A DNA stretch of 38,422 bases, from IMG/VR virus record IMGVR_UViG_2925919700_000005, positions 1-38,422 of that record, one strand, 5' to 3'. Every line of letters begins with the position of its first letter. Within the stretch, counting starts at the first letter, position 1. The notes under the pieces are model-generated. The model was not told the origin of the DNA. It worked only from the letters and a program-made list of their open reading frames with translations, and ran no database searches. Positions 1,852-34,455 of this stretch are shown here, piece after piece. Made by a program: the position numbers and the translations under genes. The stretch comes from a virus. Its lineage: Duplodnaviria > Heunggongvirae > Uroviricota > Caudoviricetes.

Positions 1852-1877
1852 GGGACTCTTCGGAGTCCCTTTTTTTA
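1852..1877 (+). terminator. Rho-independent terminator (UUCG-loop hairpin + T7)
   Basis: GGGACTC-TTCG-GAGTCCC followed by TTTTTTT; abuts the 3' end of the leftward gene 1875..2816. Confidence 0.7.
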
Positions 1878-2816
1878 TTGGCAGTAAGAAAAGTTAGTAC
1901 CGTACATTTCATCATGAAGCATTGCAGCATTGCGTTTCTGTTCTTCTTCCTCATCTTCTACATCACTAGAAAAATGAGATTTGCCCTTAAAAGAACGAAG
2001 TAATTGCAGTGCAGCCATCGGATCACGCATCACATCGATTTTCAATTCTACTTCATCATTTGCGGCCTCATCAGCCGCGTTTTCAACTACTGCTACCGGA
2101 GCAACTTCTTTAGCTTTCAGTTCTTCAATCTCAGATTTCTGTGCTTCGATAATCTGGTCTTTTTCTTCCAGTGCAGCTTTCAGTTCTGCGATCTGTGCTT
2201 CCAGTGCAGCAAAGCGATCTTCAACAACCGGAGAAACAGCATTCACCTGTGCTTCCAGTTCCAGAAATGCTTCGCAAGATTCAATACGTTCTTTCTCTTC
2301 ACCTTCATAAGCAACCAGTTCTACAACTTCTTTTTCGGTAGCGTGGCTGTTAAAGAATACAGCAAAGTAAGGATTGCCAGATTTAGTGAAGTTCAGTTTA
2401 GCTTTTCCGGTAACTTCTTTACGACGACCGAAGGTGATCTGGCAATCAGCGGTATCCTGAAAATCCATGTTAGGAGCGGAAACGATAGCAGTATCACCAG
2501 CAATAACCAGGTGGAACAGTTCAGAAGAGTTCTTAACGGTAAAAGTAACGATGTGGTCTACTGCAACGTCTTTAGCAGGTTTAACGCGGTCGATTGCTTT
2601 ACGAATGCCGTTAGGCAGTTTACCGTCAACACCAAAGCCAGCCGCGATCAGTGCTTCACGATGTGCTTTAAAGCCAGCGAAAGCGGATTTCTGCTGTGCA
2701 AAGGAAACATGAGCAACAACTTTCGGCTGAATCTTCTTGTTTGCTTCTGTGCCAAATTTGATAACTGCTTTAGCGTTGGTTACTTCGTTAGTGAAAAAGT
2801 TAGCGGAAAATAACAT
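1875..2816 (-). CDS. hypothetical protein (313 aa) with central coiled coil and acidic C-terminal region
   Basis: Long ORF with strong AGGAG SD 9 nt upstream of the ATG; heptad-like segment EAQIAELKAALEEKDQIIEAQKSEIEELKAKE; plus-strand ORFs inside it are treated as shadows. Confidence 0.7.
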   Translation of the reverse strand: MLFSANFFTNEVTNAKAVIKFGTEANKKIQPKVVAHVSFAQQKSAFAGFKAHREALIAAGFGVDGKLPNGIRKAIDRVKPAKDVAVDHIVTFTVKNSSELFHLVIAGDTAIVSAPNMDFQDTADCQITFGRRKEVTGKAKLNFTKSGNPYFAVFFNSHATEKEVVELVAYEGEEKERIESCEAFLELEAQVNAVSPVVEDRFAALEAQIAELKAALEEKDQIIEAQKSEIEELKAKEVAPVAVVENAADEAANDEVELKIDVMRDPMAALQLLRSFKGKSHFSSDVEDEEEEQKRNAAMLHDEMYGTNFSYCQ

Positions 2817-2928: not shown

Positions 2929-3111
2929 TTAGTAAACCTCTGCGGTTATCTTTACTTTAATGTCATACTTCTTTAAGAGTTTGTGGAAGGTTGATTGATC
3001 AATACCTTCACCTTTAAACCATTCACCCATCACTACATCAGGTGTCAGTTCAAAATAACGCTTTGCCATTTCTAAAACGATTTCACGAGTGAACTTAACA
3101 GGTCGTGCCAT
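2929..3111 (-). CDS. small hypothetical protein (60 aa)
   Basis: AGGAGG SD immediately upstream (minus strand); ATATAAATAATAGTGAG box ~55 nt upstream. Confidence 0.55.
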   Translation of the reverse strand: MARPVKFTREIVLEMAKRYFELTPDVVMGEWFKGEGIDQSTFHKLLKKYDIKVKITAEVY

Positions 3112-3246
3112 CTTGAATCCTCCTAAATCTGGATTAATGATTTCTTAAAAAAGAGCGTTAACCGCTCACTATTATTTATATGGGGATTGTATTTTATTTT
3201 TCAACCCCTCACACTTATCTCTTATATATGTATTTATAACAGAGAT

Positions 3247-3403
3247 ATGTTAAAATGTTATTCAGATGTTATCAGACGTGTTAAATGTGTTAAACCGCAG
3301 CACGAATTGCTAAAGCGGAGAGCACGAATTAACCAAATTGATGTATATTCAATCAATTTAGCAAAAAGGCATAGCACTTTTTGCTAAAGCGGTGAGCATT
3401 AAT
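3247..3403. repeat. Phased TGTTA repeats plus two ~24-bp direct repeats (TTGCTAAAGCGG(A/T)GAGCA...)
   Basis: TGTTA recurs five times at ~9-12 bp spacing (3248-3293); TTGCTAAAGCGGAGAGCACGAATT (3307-3330) and TTGCTAAAGCGGTGAGCATTAATT (3380-3403). Confidence 0.6.
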
Positions 3404-3630
3404 TGAGCTATGAATTGTAAAGATTTGTTACAAGATTTTCTCTCAGATCCAAATCTTCACAGGCATATAACAATTTAACACGGTGATAACAATAGGAAGG
3501 AAAATCGGTAAATTTTCACTTTCAATACAAATATTATAACATATTTATCTCGAATTTTCAAGTATACCACCGATCCTACACAGTGTCAACAAAGGATTTT
3601 CAAACCTACACTAGCCCTACACTATGAAAA

Positions 3631-3870
3631 TTGCCCCTGAATTTTGCCCCTGAACCAAAATCCCCTAGATTTCACTATCCCATTTTTGCCCCTGAAACCT
3701 ACTATTTTTGCCCCTGAAATTCTGGGAAACAGTGATTTTGCCCCTCATTTTTGCCCCTGAAATGCCAATAATTGCCCCTGAAAATCTAATTTTTGCCCCT
3801 GAAATTTGCCCCAGAAAAGGATTGGTGAGAAAAACTCTTTATAAAACATTAACTTAGCGAGGGGCAAAAG
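3631..3870. repeat. Iteron-like array of ~9 direct copies of TTTTGCCCCTGAA with one inverted copy
   Basis: Copies at ~3631, 3642, 3683, 3705, 3736 (variant CTCA), 3748, 3772, 3790, 3805 (variant CCAGAA); inverted copy GAGGGGCAAAAG at 3859-3870; spacers are 10-30 bp and irregular. Confidence 0.8.
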
Positions 3871-4012
3871 CGGGGGATCGGGTGTGCATAGATATTATAT
3901 AACACATTCGCTACGCTCATGTGTAAAACCAAAAACAACAAATAACCAAAAAGATATTAGGAGGGCGTAGCCCGACTGCGCGAAGCGCTAACCAATTACT
4001 TCTAGTAACACT

Positions 4013-4240
4013 AATTTAAACTAGATGATACTAGATGGTCTTAGAAGGAATTAACTAGTTTGCTCGCTCGCTTCGCTCACTCTCAAACGTCTGCGACGCC
4101 ACTGCGTGGCATCGAGAATCACTTCTGAAAGGATTTTCTTGAAAGGGATTTTAAACTAGTTACTAACTGATTCTAGAAAGATAGTAATAATCACTTTGAA
4201 GATAATAGTAGTTAACTGGTTACTAGATGATTCTAGATCA
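4013..4240. repeat. Three copies of a ~17-25 bp ACTAGATGAT(A/T)CTAGA-type direct repeat flanking a GC-rich structured core
   Basis: ACTAGATGATACTAGATGG (4020-4038), AACTAGTTACTAACTGATTCTAGAAAG (~4153-4180), AACTGGTTACTAGATGATTCTAGATCA (~4212-4238); GC-rich inverted repeats in 3961-4110. Confidence 0.6.
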
Positions 4241-4266
4241 CTTTAATGATCATGAAAGGTATTGGT

Positions 4267-4296
4267 TATCCCTTCGGGATTGCAACCTTCGGTTGC
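4267..4296 (+). other. Two tandem UUCG-tetraloop hairpins
   Basis: ATCCC-TTCG-GGAT and GCAACC-TTCG-GTTGC back to back. Confidence 0.5.
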
Positions 4297-4500
4297 TAAA
4301 TTGCTTCCGGATTATTATTTCTCCAAAAGAAAGATTCTTATATTCTAAAGATACTTCTTCGTTTTGATGATGATTTAATCAAAATCTATGAAGGAGGCGA
4401 AGCCGACTGAATACCAATTCCTTTCAAATTAGACAAAAATTTCTCGTTATAAATAATAGTGAACTTACTTTGATTCACTTTCTTTTAGAGGATTTCCACT

Positions 4501-4953
4501 ATGATCAATACTAAAACTCCTTTCATTCTTCTGGGTCTGAACCATGATGATAATCTGGCTATGATGCATGTTTTCGCTAATCGTGGTTATAACATCATTC
4601 GTCATTCCGAAGACTCCAATTTCTCAACTGCTTTCTATGCTCTTAAACGTAATGGTCGCCCTACGGTGATCGTAGACTGCTTTACTGATGAAGGTCGTGA
4701 ACAATACAACAACATTCCGGCAATTATTGTTCGTGATGACCTGCCGTTTGATGTTCGTGAATATGACGTTGATTTAGGCTCTTACTATGGGATCGCCGAT
4801 CTTGACCAGATTATGGCTGATTATGGTAAACAACCCGCTCAGGAAGCCCCAGAACACGATGAACAAGACGAAGATGACGACGACTACACACCAATCTGTT
4901 TCTCTTCTCACGGTGGCTTCTACGGTTACGATGAAGGCTTAGATATGCTGTAA
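4501..4953 (+). CDS. hypothetical acidic protein (150 aa); N-terminal pattern faintly resembles a receiver/flavodoxin-like fold
   Basis: GAGGA SD; CGTTATAAATAATAGTGA box 40 nt upstream; C-terminal run EHDEQDEDDDDY; alternating hydrophobic strands FILLG / YNIIRH / VIVDC / PAIIV. Confidence 0.6.
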   Translation: MINTKTPFILLGLNHDDNLAMMHVFANRGYNIIRHSEDSNFSTAFYALKRNGRPTVIVDCFTDEGREQYNNIPAIIVRDDLPFDVREYDVDLGSYYGIADLDQIMADYGKQPAQEAPEHDEQDEDDDDYTPICFSSHGGFYGYDEGLDML

Positions 4954-7458: not shown

Positions 7459-9363
7459 ATGAAACTGATTTCAAATAAGGCAAAATTAAAAAAGATTCTT
7501 AAAAATATCTCTGCGGCAATTCGCCCACCTAAAACGATGAAACCTAGCGAATGGGTAGAGGCTAATGTAGTTGCAACCGATGGTGTTAAAGCCGGATCGC
7601 TAATTAAATTGCATCCCTTCCAACGTGGAATGATGGACGCGATCACCGAAGACCGTAGAAAAATTGTGTTTAAATGTTCGGCACAGTTGGGTAAGACCAT
7701 GATTCTTAACGGAATTATCTTCCATCGGATCGCGAGTAACCCTACTAATATTGGGGTGTTGCAAAGTAACGTTAGAGAACTAAATTCTTGGATCGCTGGT
7801 AAGGTGAAGCCAGTATTAGAGGCAACGCCAGAATTAAAGGCGATGATCACCGACAAATCAGACCGTAATGCCGTTAACAACTCATCGATTATTCAGCTTC
7901 GTAACGGATCATTCATGTATTTCATGTCGCTGAACAGTCCATCACACTTGCGCGGTAAAACACTCCCTTTGATTATTCTTGATGAAGTTGATGCGGCTGA
8001 TGAGTCAGACGAAGGGAACCCGATCCAGCTAGCGGAACAACGCGCAACCACTTTCGGGGAAGATGCAAGGATCGTAATTGCTTCCACTCCAACCGCTCGT
8101 GATGGGGCGATTAACCAACAATGGGAACTCTCGGATAAGAGAAAATATCATGTCGTTTGCCAGCATTGCGGACACAAGCACGTAATGGAATGGAGTAACG
8201 TACATTTCGATTGGCATACGATTAACGGTAAATCATTACCCAACCCAGATACAGCCGTTTACCGTTGCCCTGAATGTGAAACCGACTGGACCGAAGGGGA
8301 TCGCCTACGTGCTGTTGCTCAGGGAGAATGGGTCGCCACCGAACCAAACGCGGAAGTAATCGGTTTTCATGCTAACCGCCTTATGTCTCCGTTTAGTTCT
8401 ATCCGTGCGTGTGTGGTGGACTTTGCTGATAGCTACGCGAATATGTCGCTGGCAACGTTCTATAATGTGGTGCTCGGTGAAACCTTCGATGATCTTAACG
8501 AAGACCGCACAGCCGACGAATTAGAAACGCTGAAAACTGATATTAGCCTAGACAATATTCCTGATGATGTACTGGCTCTGGTTGGTGGAGTTGACCAGCA
8601 AAAAGACCGTCTGGAATCTACCTTGCTGGGTATTTCTCGTAAAGGGCTATGCGTAGTTGATCACCGATCATTCTATGATGTGAACTGCGAACGCCACGAA
8701 TCACCAGCATATAACCAGCTTTACAACTTCCTGAAAGCGAAATTCTATACCCGATCCGGTCAACGAATCCCGATGTTATCTGCTTTCGTGGACTCATCGA
8801 ACGGACGAGCTACAAACGTGATCTATCGATTCTGCACACAATGGCAAAACCTAACAGCCATTAAAGGGGCAAGCAATGTTGATGCTCCAATCCTTCCGGT
8901 CAAGGACACAAGAACGGGTGGTTTTACTCTTAAAATTCTGGGCGTAAACAACCTTAAGACGATGATCCGTGAAATGATTAACCGGAACTTGAGAGACAGC
9001 GATCCTCATACGGTCTTCCAGATTGGTGACGTTCCTGATGACTATTGCGAGCAATTGTTATCTGAACAGTTGAAACGGCAGGGTAATACCACACGTTGGG
9101 TAAAAGTTGGTCAGCAACGAAACGAGGCTCTCGACTGCCTGGCTTACTCCTATGCTGCTTCTCGCCATGTACTCAATAAAATGTCATGGGAAAAACTCGA
9201 AGCCATCAAAGATAGTTTGAACCGTGAACCAGAAGAACCCGTAGAAGCTCCTAAATCGCAATCTAACGAGCAAATAGAAGAAACTAAGCCAATCACACGA
9301 CCGCAACGTCAAAACATCGCCAGACGTCCAAATAGAGGCCGTAGCTGGGTAACATCGTTCTAA
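7459..9363 (+). CDS. terminase large subunit (lambda gpA-like ATPase/nuclease)
   Basis: Walker A CSAQLGKT and Walker B LPLIILDEVD; Cys/His cluster CQHCGH...CPEC; 634 aa, immediately upstream of the portal gene. Confidence 0.9.
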   Translation: MKLISNKAKLKKILKNISAAIRPPKTMKPSEWVEANVVATDGVKAGSLIKLHPFQRGMMDAITEDRRKIVFKCSAQLGKTMILNGIIFHRIASNPTNIGVLQSNVRELNSWIAGKVKPVLEATPELKAMITDKSDRNAVNNSSIIQLRNGSFMYFMSLNSPSHLRGKTLPLIILDEVDAADESDEGNPIQLAEQRATTFGEDARIVIASTPTARDGAINQQWELSDKRKYHVVCQHCGHKHVMEWSNVHFDWHTINGKSLPNPDTAVYRCPECETDWTEGDRLRAVAQGEWVATEPNAEVIGFHANRLMSPFSSIRACVVDFADSYANMSLATFYNVVLGETFDDLNEDRTADELETLKTDISLDNIPDDVLALVGGVDQQKDRLESTLLGISRKGLCVVDHRSFYDVNCERHESPAYNQLYNFLKAKFYTRSGQRIPMLSAFVDSSNGRATNVIYRFCTQWQNLTAIKGASNVDAPILPVKDTRTGGFTLKILGVNNLKTMIREMINRNLRDSDPHTVFQIGDVPDDYCEQLLSEQLKRQGNTTRWVKVGQQRNEALDCLAYSYAASRHVLNKMSWEKLEAIKDSLNREPEEPVEAPKSQSNEQIEETKPITRPQRQNIARRPNRGRSWVTSF

Positions 9364-20615: not shown

Positions 20616-21944
20616 CTGAGAGATCCCCTCATAATTTCCCCAAAACGTAACCATGTGTGAATAGATTTTGAGTAAGCAGGGTTGCAGCCACGAGTGAGTC
20701 TTCCCTTGTTATTGTGTAGCCAGAATGCCGCAAAACTTCCATGCCTAAGCGAACTGTTGAGAGTACGTTTCGATTTCTGACTGTGTTAGCCTGGAAGTGC
20801 TTGTCCCAACCTTGTTTCTGAGCATGAACGCCCGCAAGCCAACATGTTAGTTGAAGCATCAGGGCGATTAGCAGCATGATATCAAAACGCTCTGAGCTGC
20901 TCGTTCGGCTATGGCGTAGGCCTAGTCCGTAGGCAGGACTTTTCAAGTCTCGGAAGGTTTCTTCAATCTGCATTCGCTTCGAATAGATATTAACAAGTTG
21001 TTTGGGTGTTCGAATTTCAACAGGTAAGTTAGTTGCTAGAATCCATGGCTCCTTTGCCGACGCTGAGTAGATTTTAGGTGACGGGTGGTGACAATGAGTC
21101 CGTGTCGAGCGCTGATTTTTTCGGCCTTTAGAGCGAGATTTATACAATAGAATTTGGCATGAGATTGGATTGCTTTTAGTCAGCCTCTTATAGCCTAAAG
21201 TCTTTGAGTGACTAGATGACATATCATGTAAGTTGCTGATAGGTTTCCAGTTTTCCGCTCCTAGGTCTGCATATTGTACTTTTCCTCTTACTCGACTTAA
21301 CCAGTACCAACCCAGCTTCTCAACGGATTTATACCATGGCACTTTAAAGCCAGCATCACTGACAATGAGCGGTGTGGTGTTACTCGGTAGAATGCTCGCA
21401 AGGTCGGCTAGAAATTGGTCATGAGCTTTCTTTGAACATTGCTCTGAAAGCGGGAACGCTTTCTCATAAAGAGTAACAGAACGACCGTGTAGTGCGACTG
21501 AAGCTCGCAATACCATAAGCCGTTTTTGCTCACGGATATCAGACCAGTCAACAAGTACAATGGGCATCGTATTGCCCGAACAGATAAAGCTAGCATGCCA
21601 ACGGTATACAGCGAGTCGCTCTTTGTGGAGGTGACGATTACCTAACAATCGGTCGATTCGTTTGATGTTATGTTTTGTTCTCGCTTTGGTTGGCAGGTTA
21701 CGGCCAAGTTCGGTAAGAGTGAGAGTTTTACAGTCAAGTAAGGCGTGGCAAGCCAACGTTAAGCTGTTGAGTCGTTTTAAGTGTAATTCGGGGCAGAATT
21801 GGTAAAGAGAGTCGTGTAAAATATCGAGTTCGCACATTTTGTTGTCTGATTATTGATTTTTGGCGAAACCATTTGATCATATGACAAGATGTGTATCTAC
21901 CTTAACTTAATGATTTTGATAAAAATCATTAGGGGATTCATCAG
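20616..21944 (-). mobile_element. IS10 insertion sequence, complete (1329 bp)
   Basis: Ends CTGAGAGATCCCCTCATAATTTCCCC (inside end, 20616) and ...AAAATCATTAGGGGATTCATCAG (outside end, 21944); length 1329 bp; encodes the 402-aa IS10 transposase. Confidence 0.97.
20629..21837 (-). CDS. IS10 transposase
   Basis: 402-aa translation MCELDILHDSLYQFCPELHLKRL...HGYVLGKL matches the IS10/Tn10 transposase as I recall it; start is 107 bp inside the outside end. Confidence 0.97.
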   Translation of the reverse strand: MCELDILHDSLYQFCPELHLKRLNSLTLACHALLDCKTLTLTELGRNLPTKARTKHNIKRIDRLLGNRHLHKERLAVYRWHASFICSGNTMPIVLVDWSDIREQKRLMVLRASVALHGRSVTLYEKAFPLSEQCSKKAHDQFLADLASILPSNTTPLIVSDAGFKVPWYKSVEKLGWYWLSRVRGKVQYADLGAENWKPISNLHDMSSSHSKTLGYKRLTKSNPISCQILLYKSRSKGRKNQRSTRTHCHHPSPKIYSASAKEPWILATNLPVEIRTPKQLVNIYSKRMQIEETFRDLKSPAYGLGLRHSRTSSSERFDIMLLIALMLQLTCWLAGVHAQKQGWDKHFQANTVRNRNVLSTVRLGMEVLRHSGYTITREDSLVAATLLTQNLFTHGYVLGKL

Positions 21945-32364: not shown

Positions 32365-32396
32365 AACAAAAGCGCCTCTAGTGGGCGCTTTTTTGT
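32364..32396. terminator. Bidirectional rho-independent terminator between convergent genes
   Basis: AAGCGCC-TCTAGT-GGGCGCTT flanked by an A-run upstream and a T-run downstream. Confidence 0.7.
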
Positions 32397-33886
32397 TATA
32401 TGGCAATTGTTTTAGTTGCATAGCTGAACTTGTCGGTTAGATAATAGCGGATTCTCTCAAGTGCATGTTTTACCGCATAATTTTTATGCTTGACTTTTCC
32501 GTTACGACCGAATATACACAGATGATCGATAAGATCCCAGACCGTTGCAATGTCTTTCGAACCATGTTTACGCAATGCACGACCGATACTCTGACGAACG
32601 ATAGTTGATTCCTTCACGGGATGACCGAAAATAACATGGTGCAAATTCTTAATTGAAACACCAGTAGAGAAAACACCATAGGATGCAACGCAAATGATCC
32701 CTGTTTCCCCTTCCGCTAATTTCTTAAATTCATCACGTTCTTCTGTCTTAACTCCACCGTCAATATAATAAACCTTGTCGTGTACCTTCTGTAACGCGTC
32801 ATACATAAGTTTTCCGTGCTTAGTATTGCGGAACATCAGGAATACGTTTTCTCCCTTCTTAGCGAGTTTTAGCGCCAAATTACAAGCAAACTTATTTCGT
32901 CGTGGATTAGACGTAATATACTTGATCTCTTCCGCATATTCTCTACCCTTAACCGCGCTACATTCCTCATCGGTATAACGAAGGAAAAGACAGTTAATTT
33001 TCAGTTTTGTCACCTGCCCTTCTTCCATCAGGCGGTCAATACTCACGATCTTAGAAATATCACCGAAAAGCCCGACATACTGCATTAAATGGCACTTTGA
33101 TTCTTTCGGGGAACCAGTCATGCCGATCTTAAATTGGCAATGATTCATTCCGTTAATGATATTGGTAATATTTTTGGCACTAGCCTTATGCGATTCATCA
33201 ACTATCAACATTCCATATTGTTTGAACCATTCAGGAGGCATCTTGCACGCTGATTGCCAGGTACTAACCGTGATTAACCTGTCTCCCGGATGTTTCCCGC
33301 TACCACTCATCATTGTATGAATTGCTTCATAAGGGAATAGCCTATAATCGATGAAATCATCCCTCATTTGAACCACTAGCGATGTAGTAGGGACAATGAT
33401 TAACACTTTTCCGGTGTAATGCTCTAAGTACCAACGAGACAGCATACAAGCAATCAATGACTTACCCGCACTGGTAGGAAGAACCAGCATTCTACGGCGA
33501 TTATGAATACCCTGAAAGACTGCCTCCCTTTGATACCAGTAAGGATTGATTTTATTGGAACCGGAATACACTTCTAGGGAATCAATCCATTCATTAATCG
33601 CGTCTTTGGTTACATCTTCCTTCTCAAGCAATCGCGGGTCAATCCAGACTGAATAGCCCATATTTTTAACGAAGACACCCAACGTTTTTAATAGTCCAAT
33701 TGGTAGGGTATTTTCATGCGTAAACAGTCTTATTCGTCCATCCCAGCCGGAATACTTGTAGCGGGGGCTAAACCTAGCCCCTTCAACCTCAAACGAGAAA
33801 TAATCCCTTAATTCCATTCCGATAGAAGGAGAGCAATCAACCTTAACGAAACTGTAATCTTGAAAATGAATTTTAATATCTTGCAT
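32396..33886 (-). CDS. UvsW-like SF2 DNA helicase
   Basis: Walker A LPTSAGKS, IIVPTT, DExH box IVDESH and VWDLIDH; overall resemblance to T4 UvsW as recalled; start set to ATG 33886, overlapping the upstream stop. Confidence 0.8.
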   Translation of the reverse strand: MQDIKIHFQDYSFVKVDCSPSIGMELRDYFSFEVEGARFSPRYKYSGWDGRIRLFTHENTLPIGLLKTLGVFVKNMGYSVWIDPRLLEKEDVTKDAINEWIDSLEVYSGSNKINPYWYQREAVFQGIHNRRRMLVLPTSAGKSLIACMLSRWYLEHYTGKVLIIVPTTSLVVQMRDDFIDYRLFPYEAIHTMMSGSGKHPGDRLITVSTWQSACKMPPEWFKQYGMLIVDESHKASAKNITNIINGMNHCQFKIGMTGSPKESKCHLMQYVGLFGDISKIVSIDRLMEEGQVTKLKINCLFLRYTDEECSAVKGREYAEEIKYITSNPRRNKFACNLALKLAKKGENVFLMFRNTKHGKLMYDALQKVHDKVYYIDGGVKTEERDEFKKLAEGETGIICVASYGVFSTGVSIKNLHHVIFGHPVKESTIVRQSIGRALRKHGSKDIATVWDLIDHLCIFGRNGKVKHKNYAVKHALERIRYYLTDKFSYATKTIAI

Positions 33887-34455
33887 TAGTTCCACTCCAC
33901 ACTTGCAATATTCTTTATATTGTTTAGTGATTTATTGCAGTAGTGGAATGTTTCAGTTTTGCCGTATTCAATCCCGCCTATACCCACATCCAGTAATCTC
34001 TTTATTGCTCTTTCAGTGGCTAAAGCATGTTTCATTGATGGCATTTCACCAGCAAAGACAATATCAAAGTTATGACCGGGATTGCGTACACCCAGATTAA
34101 TGCGTCGCTTGATGATTGACTTTGTTACACCAAATTTACCAATATCCCCTGATTTCATTACATAGAGATAAGGCACACCCGCTTTATATTGAAAGTAATC
34201 ACTTTTGAGACATGCACAGCGTTTACCTTCATTAAGCAGGTTGGTAGCTGATTTGTCGGCTCTATTGCCGCATCGGGTACATGTAAGAGCAATTCTTGAA
34301 TGAAGCCCTTTAAACTCACCCAGAAAGCCATGAAAGACTAACGGTAAGTCCTTCTCTTTGATGTGAGTCAGAATGCGTTGTTCTAATGCCGATGGAGTTA
34401 CAGCACGGGAGGATTTAGGAGTAAAAACAATATCTTTAGCCATTACTGGAATCAT
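33886..34455 (-). CDS. GIY-YIG-like (T5orf172-type) protein with N-terminal zinc ribbon; possible homing endonuclease or DNA-binding nuclease
   Basis: CTRCGN...CAC Cys cluster followed by YLYVMKSGDIGKFGVTKSIIKRR (GIY-YIG-like Y-x-Y...K-F-G-x-T...R pattern). Confidence 0.5.
   Translation of the reverse strand: MIPVMAKDIVFTPKSSRAVTPSALEQRILTHIKEKDLPLVFHGFLGEFKGLHSRIALTCTRCGNRADKSATNLLNEGKRCACLKSDYFQYKAGVPYLYVMKSGDIGKFGVTKSIIKRRINLGVRNPGHNFDIVFAGEMPSMKHALATERAIKRLLDVGIGGIEYGKTETFHYCNKSLNNIKNIASVEWN

Follow-up and report, generated by a model that had tools for sequence, protein, structure and literature searches.

In a prophage of about 38 kb from Escherichia coli, analysed here as a window of 38,422 nucleotides (positions 1 to 38,422 of IMG/VR record IMGVR_UViG_2925919700_000005), a gene-free gap of 1.4 kb (3112-4500) separates divergent genes and holds a segment of repeats and hairpins (3961-4300) that is best read as DNA-level architecture and not as a gene, straddling two modules between divergent early promoters. 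It combines small hairpins that are under selection with CTAG repeats in helical phase and operator-like boxes, at the point where a swappable iteron/protein module adjoins the conserved region that controls the rightward early promoter. We take its left half (3963 to about 4120) to be the right end of this swappable specificity module, whose function we infer to be that of a replication origin, and we propose, at a probability of roughly 0.35, that the segment flanks a modular iteron origin similar to RSF1010 oriV and serves it in priming and in forming structures.

The modularity is seen in relatives of the prophage, which were drawn from IMG/VR, E. coli genomes and metagenomes. They have the same gene order, with a gap of 1.2-1.5 kb, and represent four module types, which were also all that a scan of metagenomes returned:

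Type A: iteron TTTTGCCCCTGAA; this window and others
Type B: a CCTACAC-type iteron; relatives L012-14, L020-26, L028 and L070
Type C: iteron AAATCCCCAAGATTCCAC; relative L019
Type D: about 25 TCCCCG units at multiples of 11 bp, in two clusters around an AT-rich stretch; relatives L009, L027, L029, L030 and L067

Between prophages that are otherwise 87-97% identical, the block that is swapped extends in the window from 1879 to about 4217 against type D and about 4254 against type B, and it carries the gene of a variable protein, the iterons and the GC hairpins together. As the block is replaced as a unit, the protein co-varies with the array and with the left half of the segment in the same module; the small-terminase-like (TerS-like) gene and the large-terminase gene (TerL) stay 87-95% identical, without co-variation with the swapped block. 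In the window, the leftward operon on the left of the gap and the elements leading up to the hairpins are:

2929-3111, minus strand: conserved 60-aa protein, encoded by the first gene of the leftward operon
1875-2816, minus strand: variable 313-aa protein, encoded next in the operon; its N-terminal domain is rich in beta structure, a long coiled coil is present and the tail is acidic; a candidate for binding the iterons, as initiator or regulator
3629-3876, plus strand: iteron array, TTTTGCCCCTGAA about nine times at spacings of 13, 21-22 and 42-43 bp
3920-3959, plus strand: A-rich tract of 22% GC (0.225) and AT skew 0.55, ending in AAAGATATTA directly before the first hairpin; candidate DNA-unwinding region

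The iterons are thus helically phased, at 21-22 and 42-43 bp here and at 11-bp multiples in type D, in support of an origin. The array gives way to an AT-rich stretch (3818-3858) and then to a single inverted copy (3859-3876), and together with the repeat and hairpin segment it occupies about 3590-4430 (~0.85 kb) between divergent promoters. Three CCTACAC cores of type B are retained in this type A window at 3576-3623, over the leftward promoter.

All types present their elements in a common order: an A-rich tract ending in AAAGATATTA or AAAGAATAC, one or two GC hairpins, a GAAGGGATTT-type box, a CTAG array, ATCACTTT, TGAAAGGTATTGG, two tandem hairpins, an AT-rich cassette, a hairpin followed by GACTG, and the rightward promoter. 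The passage from AAAGATATTA or AAAGAATAC into a GC hairpin holds for all four of them. The interior between the hairpins is unalignable across types, with a length of about 150-420 nt and a variable number of repeats. An origin-type role of the variable module is favoured because a protein gene, phased iterons, an A-skewed AT-rich tract and GC hairpins stand in a row, and because no other recognisable initiator, primase or loader is found in the genome: across the 38 kb, the window annotation and our Pfam and PHROG scans show a UvsW-like helicase but no protein for replication initiation, primer synthesis or helicase loading.

Upstream of the 60-aa gene, an alternative left arm carries two LexA-like boxes (CTG-N10-CAG, e.g. 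CCACTGTATATTCGATCAGTGG), located at ~3828-3849 and ~3912-3933 in L009 and also present in L012, L019, L020, L023, L024, L068 and L070; we take them to be close to the uvrA box of E. coli. Given these boxes ahead of the operon in many relatives, the variable protein would be switched on at induction and would not be a lysogeny repressor, a further point in favour of an origin-type role. The left arm of the window is without LexA-like boxes and has two strong promoters in their place. Left arms and iteron types reassort independently, as shown by L021 and L022, in which type B goes with a window-like arm, and by L068, where type A goes with a LexA arm.

The hairpins of the segment are small and are partitioned between the strands:

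3963-3988, plus strand: left arm, GGGC-GTA-GCCC (3963-3973, hp1) and GCGC-GAA-GCGC (3978-3988, hp2) with GACT between them, both with GNA triloops
4062-4113, minus strand: right arm (GC core), GCGAAGC (complement of 4070-4076), CGTC-GCA-GACG (4088-4098) and GCCAC-GCA-GTGGC (4098-4110), with GNA loops on the bottom strand
4268-4296, minus strand: two tandem hairpins, reading ATCCC-GAA-GGGAT and GCAACC-GAA-GGTTGC on the bottom strand, each with CCGAAGG
4396-4404, plus strand: hp1', GGC-GAA-GCC followed by GACTG; a direct-repeat copy of the module at 3963

C-GNA-G loops lie on the top strand at 3963, 3978 and 4396 and on the bottom strand at 4088, 4098, 4268 and 4282. The window as a whole holds 16 C-GNA-G triloop hairpins (13 +/- 3.6 expected), seven of which are inside 3963-4404, most of the longest-stemmed included. 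One further mini-hairpin of this kind, GTCGC-GTA-GCGAC with a C-GTA-G loop on the bottom strand at 530-542, stands directly upstream of the TerS-like gene. A CTG trinucleotide follows the first left-arm stem, and in the extended stem at 4095-4113 a C-A of the top strand corresponds to G-T on the bottom strand. The whole segment is bracketed by a direct repeat of ~45 nt (hairpin-GACTG-ACCAATT, at 3960-4001 and 4393-4423), a feature that the original prediction, made from the letters of the window, did not mention. That prediction had described the pair at 4268-4296 as two tandem UUCG hairpins; the two tandem hairpins (4268-4280 and 4282-4296) are real, with DNA folds at z = -4.1 and -4.3, and by their pairing register the loops are of 3 nt, C-TTC-G on the top strand (C-UUC-G in RNA) and C-GAA-G on the bottom strand, not cUUCGg tetraloops.

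Comparison among the relatives shows that pairing is maintained while loops change. The stems of hp1 and hp1' occur as GGGC/GCCC, GGC/GCC, ACGGC/GCCGT (type B) and TGGC/GCCA (L028), enclosing GTA, GAA, TTT, TTTA or TA. Variants of hp1' include GGGC-TTT-GCCC, GGGC-TTTA-GCCC and TGGC-TTTA-GCCA, the last of which is a compensatory change from G-C to T-A in L028, and the outer stem pair is G-C in type A, C-G in type B and T-A in L028. In hp2 the GCGC stem is unchanged and the loop is GAA, GTA or TTTA. No variant with a broken stem was found among about a dozen distinct sequences, whose stem and loop pair types were counted by hand, as a pooled MAFFT alignment of the hp1 type was too ragged for pair counting. 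For the tandem hairpins at the right there are two versions, unrelated in sequence but alike in their two-hairpin layout, and the loops of the second are TAGG, AGG or TGGA. Judged from such comparisons of sequence, the small local hairpins are under selection for pairing, since stems are kept, loops vary and changes are compensatory.

In type B the right arm repeats this layout, its bottom strand carrying CGCC-GTA-GGCG and GCGAAGC, and the hairpins of type C have TTTA loops, top-strand at the left and bottom-strand at the right. A second hairpin cluster whose loops are complementary to the first is common to types A, B and C, with GNA at top left and at bottom right in A and B, and the strand-inverted arrangement, which supports an origin, is found in types B and C and in a locus of phage RB49 described below. 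These two clusters with complementary loops account for the long-range inverted repeat, GCGAAGCG/CGCTTCGC, that the original prediction had described. The repeat exists (3974-3987 against 4069-4082, 86% of 14 nt), but its left arm lies to the left of the first CTAG repeat, so that the repeats do not bracket both arms as had been claimed. An RNA helix between 3974-3987 and 4069-4082 was rejected, as it is mismatched wherever the loop of hp2 is GTA and has no counterpart in type C. The check across relatives that had been suggested for a covarying structure gave a negative answer: long-range pairing and repeat number vary, and only local hairpins of 4-6 bp are conserved.

Interspersed with the hairpins are three repeats rich in CTAG:

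4020-4049, plus strand: R1, three tandem 10-bp CTAGAT-type units, ACTAGATGAT, ACTAGATGGT and CTTAGAAGGA, in exact register
4154-4177, plus strand: R2, AACTAGTTACTAACTGATTCTAGA
4214-4237, plus strand: R3, AACTGGTTACTAGATGATTCTAGA, the second copy in a tandem duplication of ~60 bp

Related ACTAGAT-type repeats had been placed at about 4020, 4153 and 4212, and they are present as R1-R3; R2 and R3 are 88% identical with starts 60 nt apart, whereas R1 consists of three 10-nt units and resembles R3 in part only (17 nt, 94%). The duplication that carries R2 and R3 also duplicates ATCACTTT. Exact copies of ACTAGATGAT are confined in the window to positions 4020 and 4222, and the exact 22-mer of R2 is found in IMG/VR only in contigs of this prophage family. 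The tetranucleotide CTAG is under-represented in the window (59 observed against 94.7 +/- 9.5 expected), yet eight of the 59 copies fall within the 235 nt of 4002-4236, where about 0.3 would be expected (Poisson p ~1e-9, ~25-fold the background density). The GC content is 58-63% at 3960-3999 and 4060-4119, compared with 22-35% in the flanks. As had been stated, the repeats form a second family distinct from the 13-mer array, that is, the iterons. Their 10-bp phasing is as expected of putative protein sites, in which respect the suggestion of regulator sites is borne out in part.

That the repeats might be recombination signals is supported in so far as homology breaks at them. Breakpoints lie at about 4119, 4179, 4217, 4228 and 4254, on ATCACTT, R2, R3 and TGAAAGG motifs, and homology to type D resumes exactly within R3, at 4217. 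Exactly one 10-nt unit of R1 is missing from L016; the R3 duplication is missing in six type A relatives, with R3 absent or replaced in many of that type; two relatives share a 21-nt deletion, and deletions of 10, 21 and about 40 nt are seen in the segment overall. Type C has a related three-unit array at the position of R1 and an extra copy of R2 at the left. To judge by these joints, R1-R3 behave as sites of recombination between modules. Two further rearrangements were noted in the region, an inverted AT-rich cassette in L028 (~3150-3180) and a private perfect hairpin of 20 bp in L012 (4439-4484, GGGATACCAATCACTTTC..GAAAGTGATTGGTATCCC) made from ATCACTTT and TGAAAGG motifs, which point to frequent inversion or template switching there.

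The right half of the segment and the remainder of the gap carry boxes, promoters and promoter-like elements:

3533-3589, minus strand: two tandem sigma-70-like leftward promoters, each with 11 of 12 consensus positions, directing transcription away from the repeat segment
4126-4150, plus strand: two TGAAAGG(N)ATT boxes
4253-4263 (plus strand), 4416-4426 (minus strand) and 4515-4525 (minus strand): further TGAAAGGNATT boxes
4310-4392, plus strand: AT-rich promoter-like cassette, TTGATG-17-TATGAA, with an internal palindrome TTTTGAT..ATCAAAA
4430-4457, plus strand: sigma-70-like promoter for the 150-aa gene, 10 of 12 consensus positions
4501-4953, plus strand: 150-aa gene, rightward, on the right of the gap

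The TGAAAGGNATT family, likewise not mentioned in the original prediction, has starts at 4126, 4140 and 4253 on the plus strand and at 4416 and 4515 on the minus strand; its motif has 11 matches in the window (4.9 +/- 2.0 expected), exact matches being confined to this region, and related boxes occur in all module types. The boxes flank the promoter at 4430-4457 in inverted orientation, and a 14-nt inverted repeat made by the copies at 4253-4266 and 4413-4426 encloses the hairpins together with the cassette. The same promoter overlaps the 15-nt element TATAAATAATAGTGA (4448-4462), which makes a perfect inverted repeat with TCACTATTATTTATA (3166-3180), each copy lying about 50 nt upstream of one of the divergent start codons (3111 and 4501). 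This placement ahead of both operons suggests co-regulation as a possibility, and we take TATAAATA, which is contained in the repeat, to be the T4 late-promoter consensus. The cassette matches 8 of 12 promoter consensus positions, with a -10 box that is without the final T and becomes CATGAA in relatives. In the window, no sigma-70 promoter with at least 9 of 12 positions is directed into the segment.

The cassette at 4310-4392 is shared with T4-like phages of the genus Krischvirus, being 76-81% identical over 74-83 nt (E down to 1e-8) to intergenic DNA of RB49, Phi1, JSE and relatives, and in the T4-like contigs it is present in two copies 149 nt apart. In RB49 (L018, NC_005066 97,434-97,848) the match falls in a 414-bp gap between ORF164 and ORF165 (open reading frames of the gene 24-hoc region), where both copies read TTGATC-17-TATTAA and run against the orientation of the flanking genes. 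The RB49 gap also presents, in the order of the window, a CCGC-GTA-GCGG hairpin, ACTTCTAGTAA 25 nt later (24 nt in the window), TCGCTTCGC and a CTCC-TAC-GGAG hairpin, and a 25-nt stretch of it aligns to the arm of type B at 80% identity with differences that keep the stem paired. Collinear shared 9-mers or 8-mers of this kind were obtained in about 2% of shuffles (p about 0.02), so that a wider collinear similarity beyond the cassette is only suggestive. The 414-bp region is unannotated in the record and may have been overlooked as an element of regulation or replication in Krischvirus phages. A cassette common to this prophage and to RB49-type phages is direct evidence of non-coding regulatory DNA moving between temperate and virulent coliphages.

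Based on this anatomy we propose that the variable protein would bind its iterons and melt the neighbouring A-rich tract, possibly aided by negative supercoiling from the divergent promoters. Once single strands are exposed, compact C-GNA-G mini-hairpins could fold, those at 3963-3988 from the top strand and those at 4088-4110 (and 4268-4296) from the bottom strand. Being of opposite orientation, they would serve as single-strand initiation signals at which the host primes, with synthesis proceeding outwards both ways. R1-R3, with their 10-bp-phased CTAG, and the TGAAAGGNATT boxes are predicted sites for phage or host proteins that may organise the complex and control the rightward promoter, and they may double as short homologies for module exchange.

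Such a scheme resembles what has been described for plasmid RSF1010, where opening of the DNA by RepC-bound iterons of oriV uncovers ssiA and ssiB; these are hairpin signals of 40 nt, one on each of the complementary strands, and primers start 3' of the hairpin (PMC8567376). Mini-hairpins of the d(GCGNAGC) type recur at phage and plasmid replication-initiation sites, including the G4 ori and, with CCGAAGG, RSF1010 ssiA, and they bind SSB poorly (PMC13037366). Our segment has in common with the oriV of RSF1010/R1162 (IncQ) an iteron array beside an AT-rich segment, then inverted hairpin signals on complementary strands, and its bottom strand at 4268-4296 has the same CCGAAGG mini-hairpin as ssiA; the inverted hairpins on complementary strands are present as a sequence layout only, and type D has a single hairpin. 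However, no homologue of the RepA helicase, the RepB' primase or RepC was found in the window annotation or in Pfam and PHROG scans, and as these cognate proteins were not found, the segment is at most an analogue and not a member of the IncQ oriV group. Its hairpins are also shorter (4-6 against about 10 bp) and more numerous, and similarity to ssiA and ssiB does not extend beyond the mini-hairpin. A likeness to the DnaG-dependent signals of the G4 type is by motif only, namely GCGAAGC and GCGTAGC and a CTG 2 nt 3' of hp1 and hp1', CTG being the start motif of DnaG; but the G4 origin has three larger hairpins, and here the bottom-strand hairpins and the hp1 of type B are without a following CTG. 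With the lambda ori/O system, plasmid Rep-iteron origins and the origins of staphylococcal pathogenicity islands (SaPI), the locus shares short phased repeats, an AT-rich neighbour, an adjacent candidate initiator gene and swapped specificity modules. Two iteron clusters flank an AT-rich stretch in SaPI origins, as they do in type D. Unlike in these systems, the variable protein is without detectable similarity to the Rep, O or Pri-Rep families, DnaA boxes are absent, the iterons are not within the gene, and the repeat number is high (9 to about 25). The segment is best described as a probable variant of known origin and control-region architectures.

Several observations weigh against an origin. 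The 313-aa protein has no match in Pfam, PHROG or PDB sequence searches and resembles no known initiator, and the co-variation of protein and array is equally expected of a regulator/operator module. No DnaA box (TTATCCACA at up to one mismatch) is present in 3112-4500, and GC skew tracks gene orientation, with no origin signal in the gap. The hairpins at 3963-3988 and in the core at 4062-4116 have stems of just 4-5 bp and a nearest-neighbour energy that does not surpass that of composition-matched shuffles (z -0.4 to -1.3), and since their folding energy is not exceptional the evidence for them is comparative. Type D relatives, which are presumably viable, have one GC hairpin in place of the inverted arms and are missing R1 and R2, so that the arms are either module-specific or dispensable. 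Finally, the region of the RB49 homologue is hyperplastic, and T4-type phages have a primase of their own for priming.

Almost as good as the origin reading, and possible although we would hold it only tentatively, is an explanation as transcriptional punctuation, in which terminator or attenuator stem-loops and promoter cassettes insulate the iterons and the rightward early promoter against read-through, with R1-R3 and the TGAAAGGNATT boxes as operators and no replication role; both can hold together. T4-type phages of the RB49 group (RB49/phi1) carry promoter-early/stem-loop cassettes known as PeSLs, in which sigma-70-like promoters are combined with G(n)-loop-C(n) stem-loops that act in transcription termination and in the shuffling of modules (PMC2839356, PMC4122927). 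The locus resembles them in its AT-rich region, -35/-10-like boxes and nearby G(n)-loop-C(n) stem-loops, and it shares with them repeated elements with module exchange, here seen as breakpoints on motifs and insertions or deletions of whole units, and the mosaic joints at its repeats are as described for PeSLs. The identity of the cassette with Krischvirus intergenic DNA, the inverted boxes around the 4430-4457 promoter, the sequence TAGAAT read on the bottom strand of R2 and R3, and the GGGC..GCCC-type hairpins adjoining both promoter-like sites all fit this explanation. Terminators were called in types B and C only, namely at hp1 of type B (leftward, ACGGC-TAC-GCCGT followed by ATTCTTTTTG) and at the type C counterpart of the 4282 hairpin (rightward, plus strand), whereas no hairpin within 3961-4300 passes the scan in the window, because T-runs begin too far from the stems. 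Moreover, the prophage is temperate, the boxes of its cassette are imperfect (8/12) compared with the near-perfect TTGACA-N17-TATAAT of RB49, its plus-strand -10 (TATGAA/CATGAA) is unconserved and without the key final T, the matched RB49 cassettes are directed against the flanking genes, and the switch of GNA loops from one strand to the other between the arms is left unexplained. Were the segment only such promoter and terminator punctuation, it would be ordinary. A discrete non-coding RNA, acting as an origin primer, antisense RNA or regulator, is unlikely. Its most plausible, leftward version would be about 385 nt long, starting near 4335 (TCATCA-17-TAGAAT), with two GAA-loop hairpins at its 5' end and with the 3988-3963 hairpins and a U-rich tract at its end; a rightward one would comprise the about 340 nt of 3961-4300. 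Folding is better than that of shuffles for either strand (z -4.0 and -5.0), but such similar values for the two are what palindromic DNA gives. Within 3961-4300, GNA loops lie on the bottom strand in four of the six hairpins, and one has G-U there against a top-strand C-A, type C has a leftward promoter (10/12) at the equivalent position, type B a leftward terminator-like site at the left boundary, and stem changes are compensatory; on the other hand, the promoter candidates in the window reach only 8/12 and the body is of no fixed length (about 150 to 420 nt) and has both gained and lost repeats. The structured non-coding RNA locus put forward in the original prediction is hence not upheld, given an unconserved interior, long-range pairing that is unconserved and lost in type C, and the outcome of Rfam searches, of which one of the whole window at gathering scores matched only RNA-OUT of an IS10 copy at 21830-21899, and one of 3100-4520 at permissive thresholds gave nothing better than E 0.03, far below gathering scores.

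It is rather improbable that the segment is largely non-functional debris, made of duplications and short-homology scars in a hyperplastic intergenic region where palindromes persist passively. R units and the 60-bp duplication do vary freely in copy number, deletions of the three sizes given above occur, a direct repeat brackets the segment, and several hairpins give a weak thermodynamic signal. Against this, compensatory changes maintain stem pairing, the same ordered layout recurs in four module types of differing sequence and is suggested in RB49, and CTAG, which the genome elsewhere avoids, is concentrated here. Packaging (cos/pac) or another site-specific recombination signal, with the GC core cleaved and the repeats binding terminase, is highly improbable, and the packaging role considered in the original prediction fails on type D. 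A GC core with flanking repeats and partial two-fold symmetry does recall cosN and cosB, and the prophage encodes both terminase components:

7459-9363: large terminase, lambda gpA-type
653-1222: TerS-like gene (phrog_57, E 2e-16)

Yet type D is without the core, R1, R2 and the left arm with its hairpins while its terminase genes are 91-95% identical (TerL 94.6%, TerS-like 90.7%), on which grounds a lambda-type cos site was rejected. The core co-varies with the 313-aa protein and not with terminase, and the serine recombinase acts at the prophage ends. 

To return to the proposed origin, a bolder version seems quite unlikely to us: that the locus represents a new phage-origin type, in which a swappable initiator/iteron cassette and strand-partitioned C-GNA-G hairpins recruit host priming without a phage primase or helicase loader, and that it is shared with Krischvirus, the 414-bp region of RB49 being an unrecognised origin or priming site. 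If the hairpins are priming signals, this would be a small temperate phage replicating with host enzymes and a single unknown protein, and d(GCGNAGC) hairpins would have a biological role in a double-stranded DNA phage. The prophage family has no recognisable replication initiator or repressor. The 1.4 kb gap is where its control logic must sit, and four interchangeable protein/iteron cassettes offer a natural system for incompatibility or immunity swapping.

The module proteins, of ~300-340 aa, share one architecture at 16-35% identity between types, and the variable protein has one or two paralogues in the swapped block, types C and D carrying two. Searches with the 313-aa protein by tblastn against plasmid and phage collections gave no match, and a search of 5.8 billion proteins gave only ~99% identical copies among the matches listed. 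An exhaustive HMMER search produced 11 matches, among which the only full-length relatives were 38-56% identical and likewise unannotated; multi-stretch HMMER matches to giant repeat proteins were rejected as spurious. Database relatives P0122 and P0125 are 47% and 27% identical. The AlphaFold2 model of the 313-aa protein has a pLDDT of 58, and Foldseek found no match to it in PDB or BFVD at E <= 0.001. The C-termini of many variable proteins, ..AA or ..VA, recall degradation tags of the ssrA type. The 60-aa protein is present in every relative at 53-98% identity, and Pfam and PHROG scans assigned it to no family. Small open reading frames in 3850-4500 are all unconserved (22-46 codons), and no tRNA or tmRNA genes were found.

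The prophage is inserted in ycdX, and homologous DNA of ~38 kb splits ycdX in strain ETEC1703 (NZ_CP122923). Nucleotide-level matches to the window are to E. coli chromosomes only, 56-57 of 5426 complete genomes, so that the family resides in about 1% of them, without a close isolated relative; the window has no such match in plasmids or isolated phages, 3950-4310 has no nucleotide relatives in isolated phages and plasmids (E >= 0.3 in phages), and 3961-4300 has no significant match in isolated phages. Further relatives came from IMG/VR and metagenome contigs, and wider ones were absent from two scans of one genome per species. Nearest proteins of isolated phages (terminase, capsid) are 43-45% identical at best. 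Besides a large serine recombinase at one end and the terminase genes, the prophage encodes portal, capsid, tail and lysis functions and GIY-YIG/CapR nucleases. Its TerS-like gene is 6 kb from that of the large terminase, with the entire early and control region between the two. An IS10 copy occupies 20629-21899 in the tail-gene region, with a 402-aa transposase and the RNA-OUT noted above (97 bits), and it is missing from the ETEC1703 relative. The UvsW-like helicase gene (32396-33895, minus strand; UvsW_N, E 2e-34) is found in a prophage otherwise without recognisable replication genes; in T4, UvsW unwinds origin R-loops.

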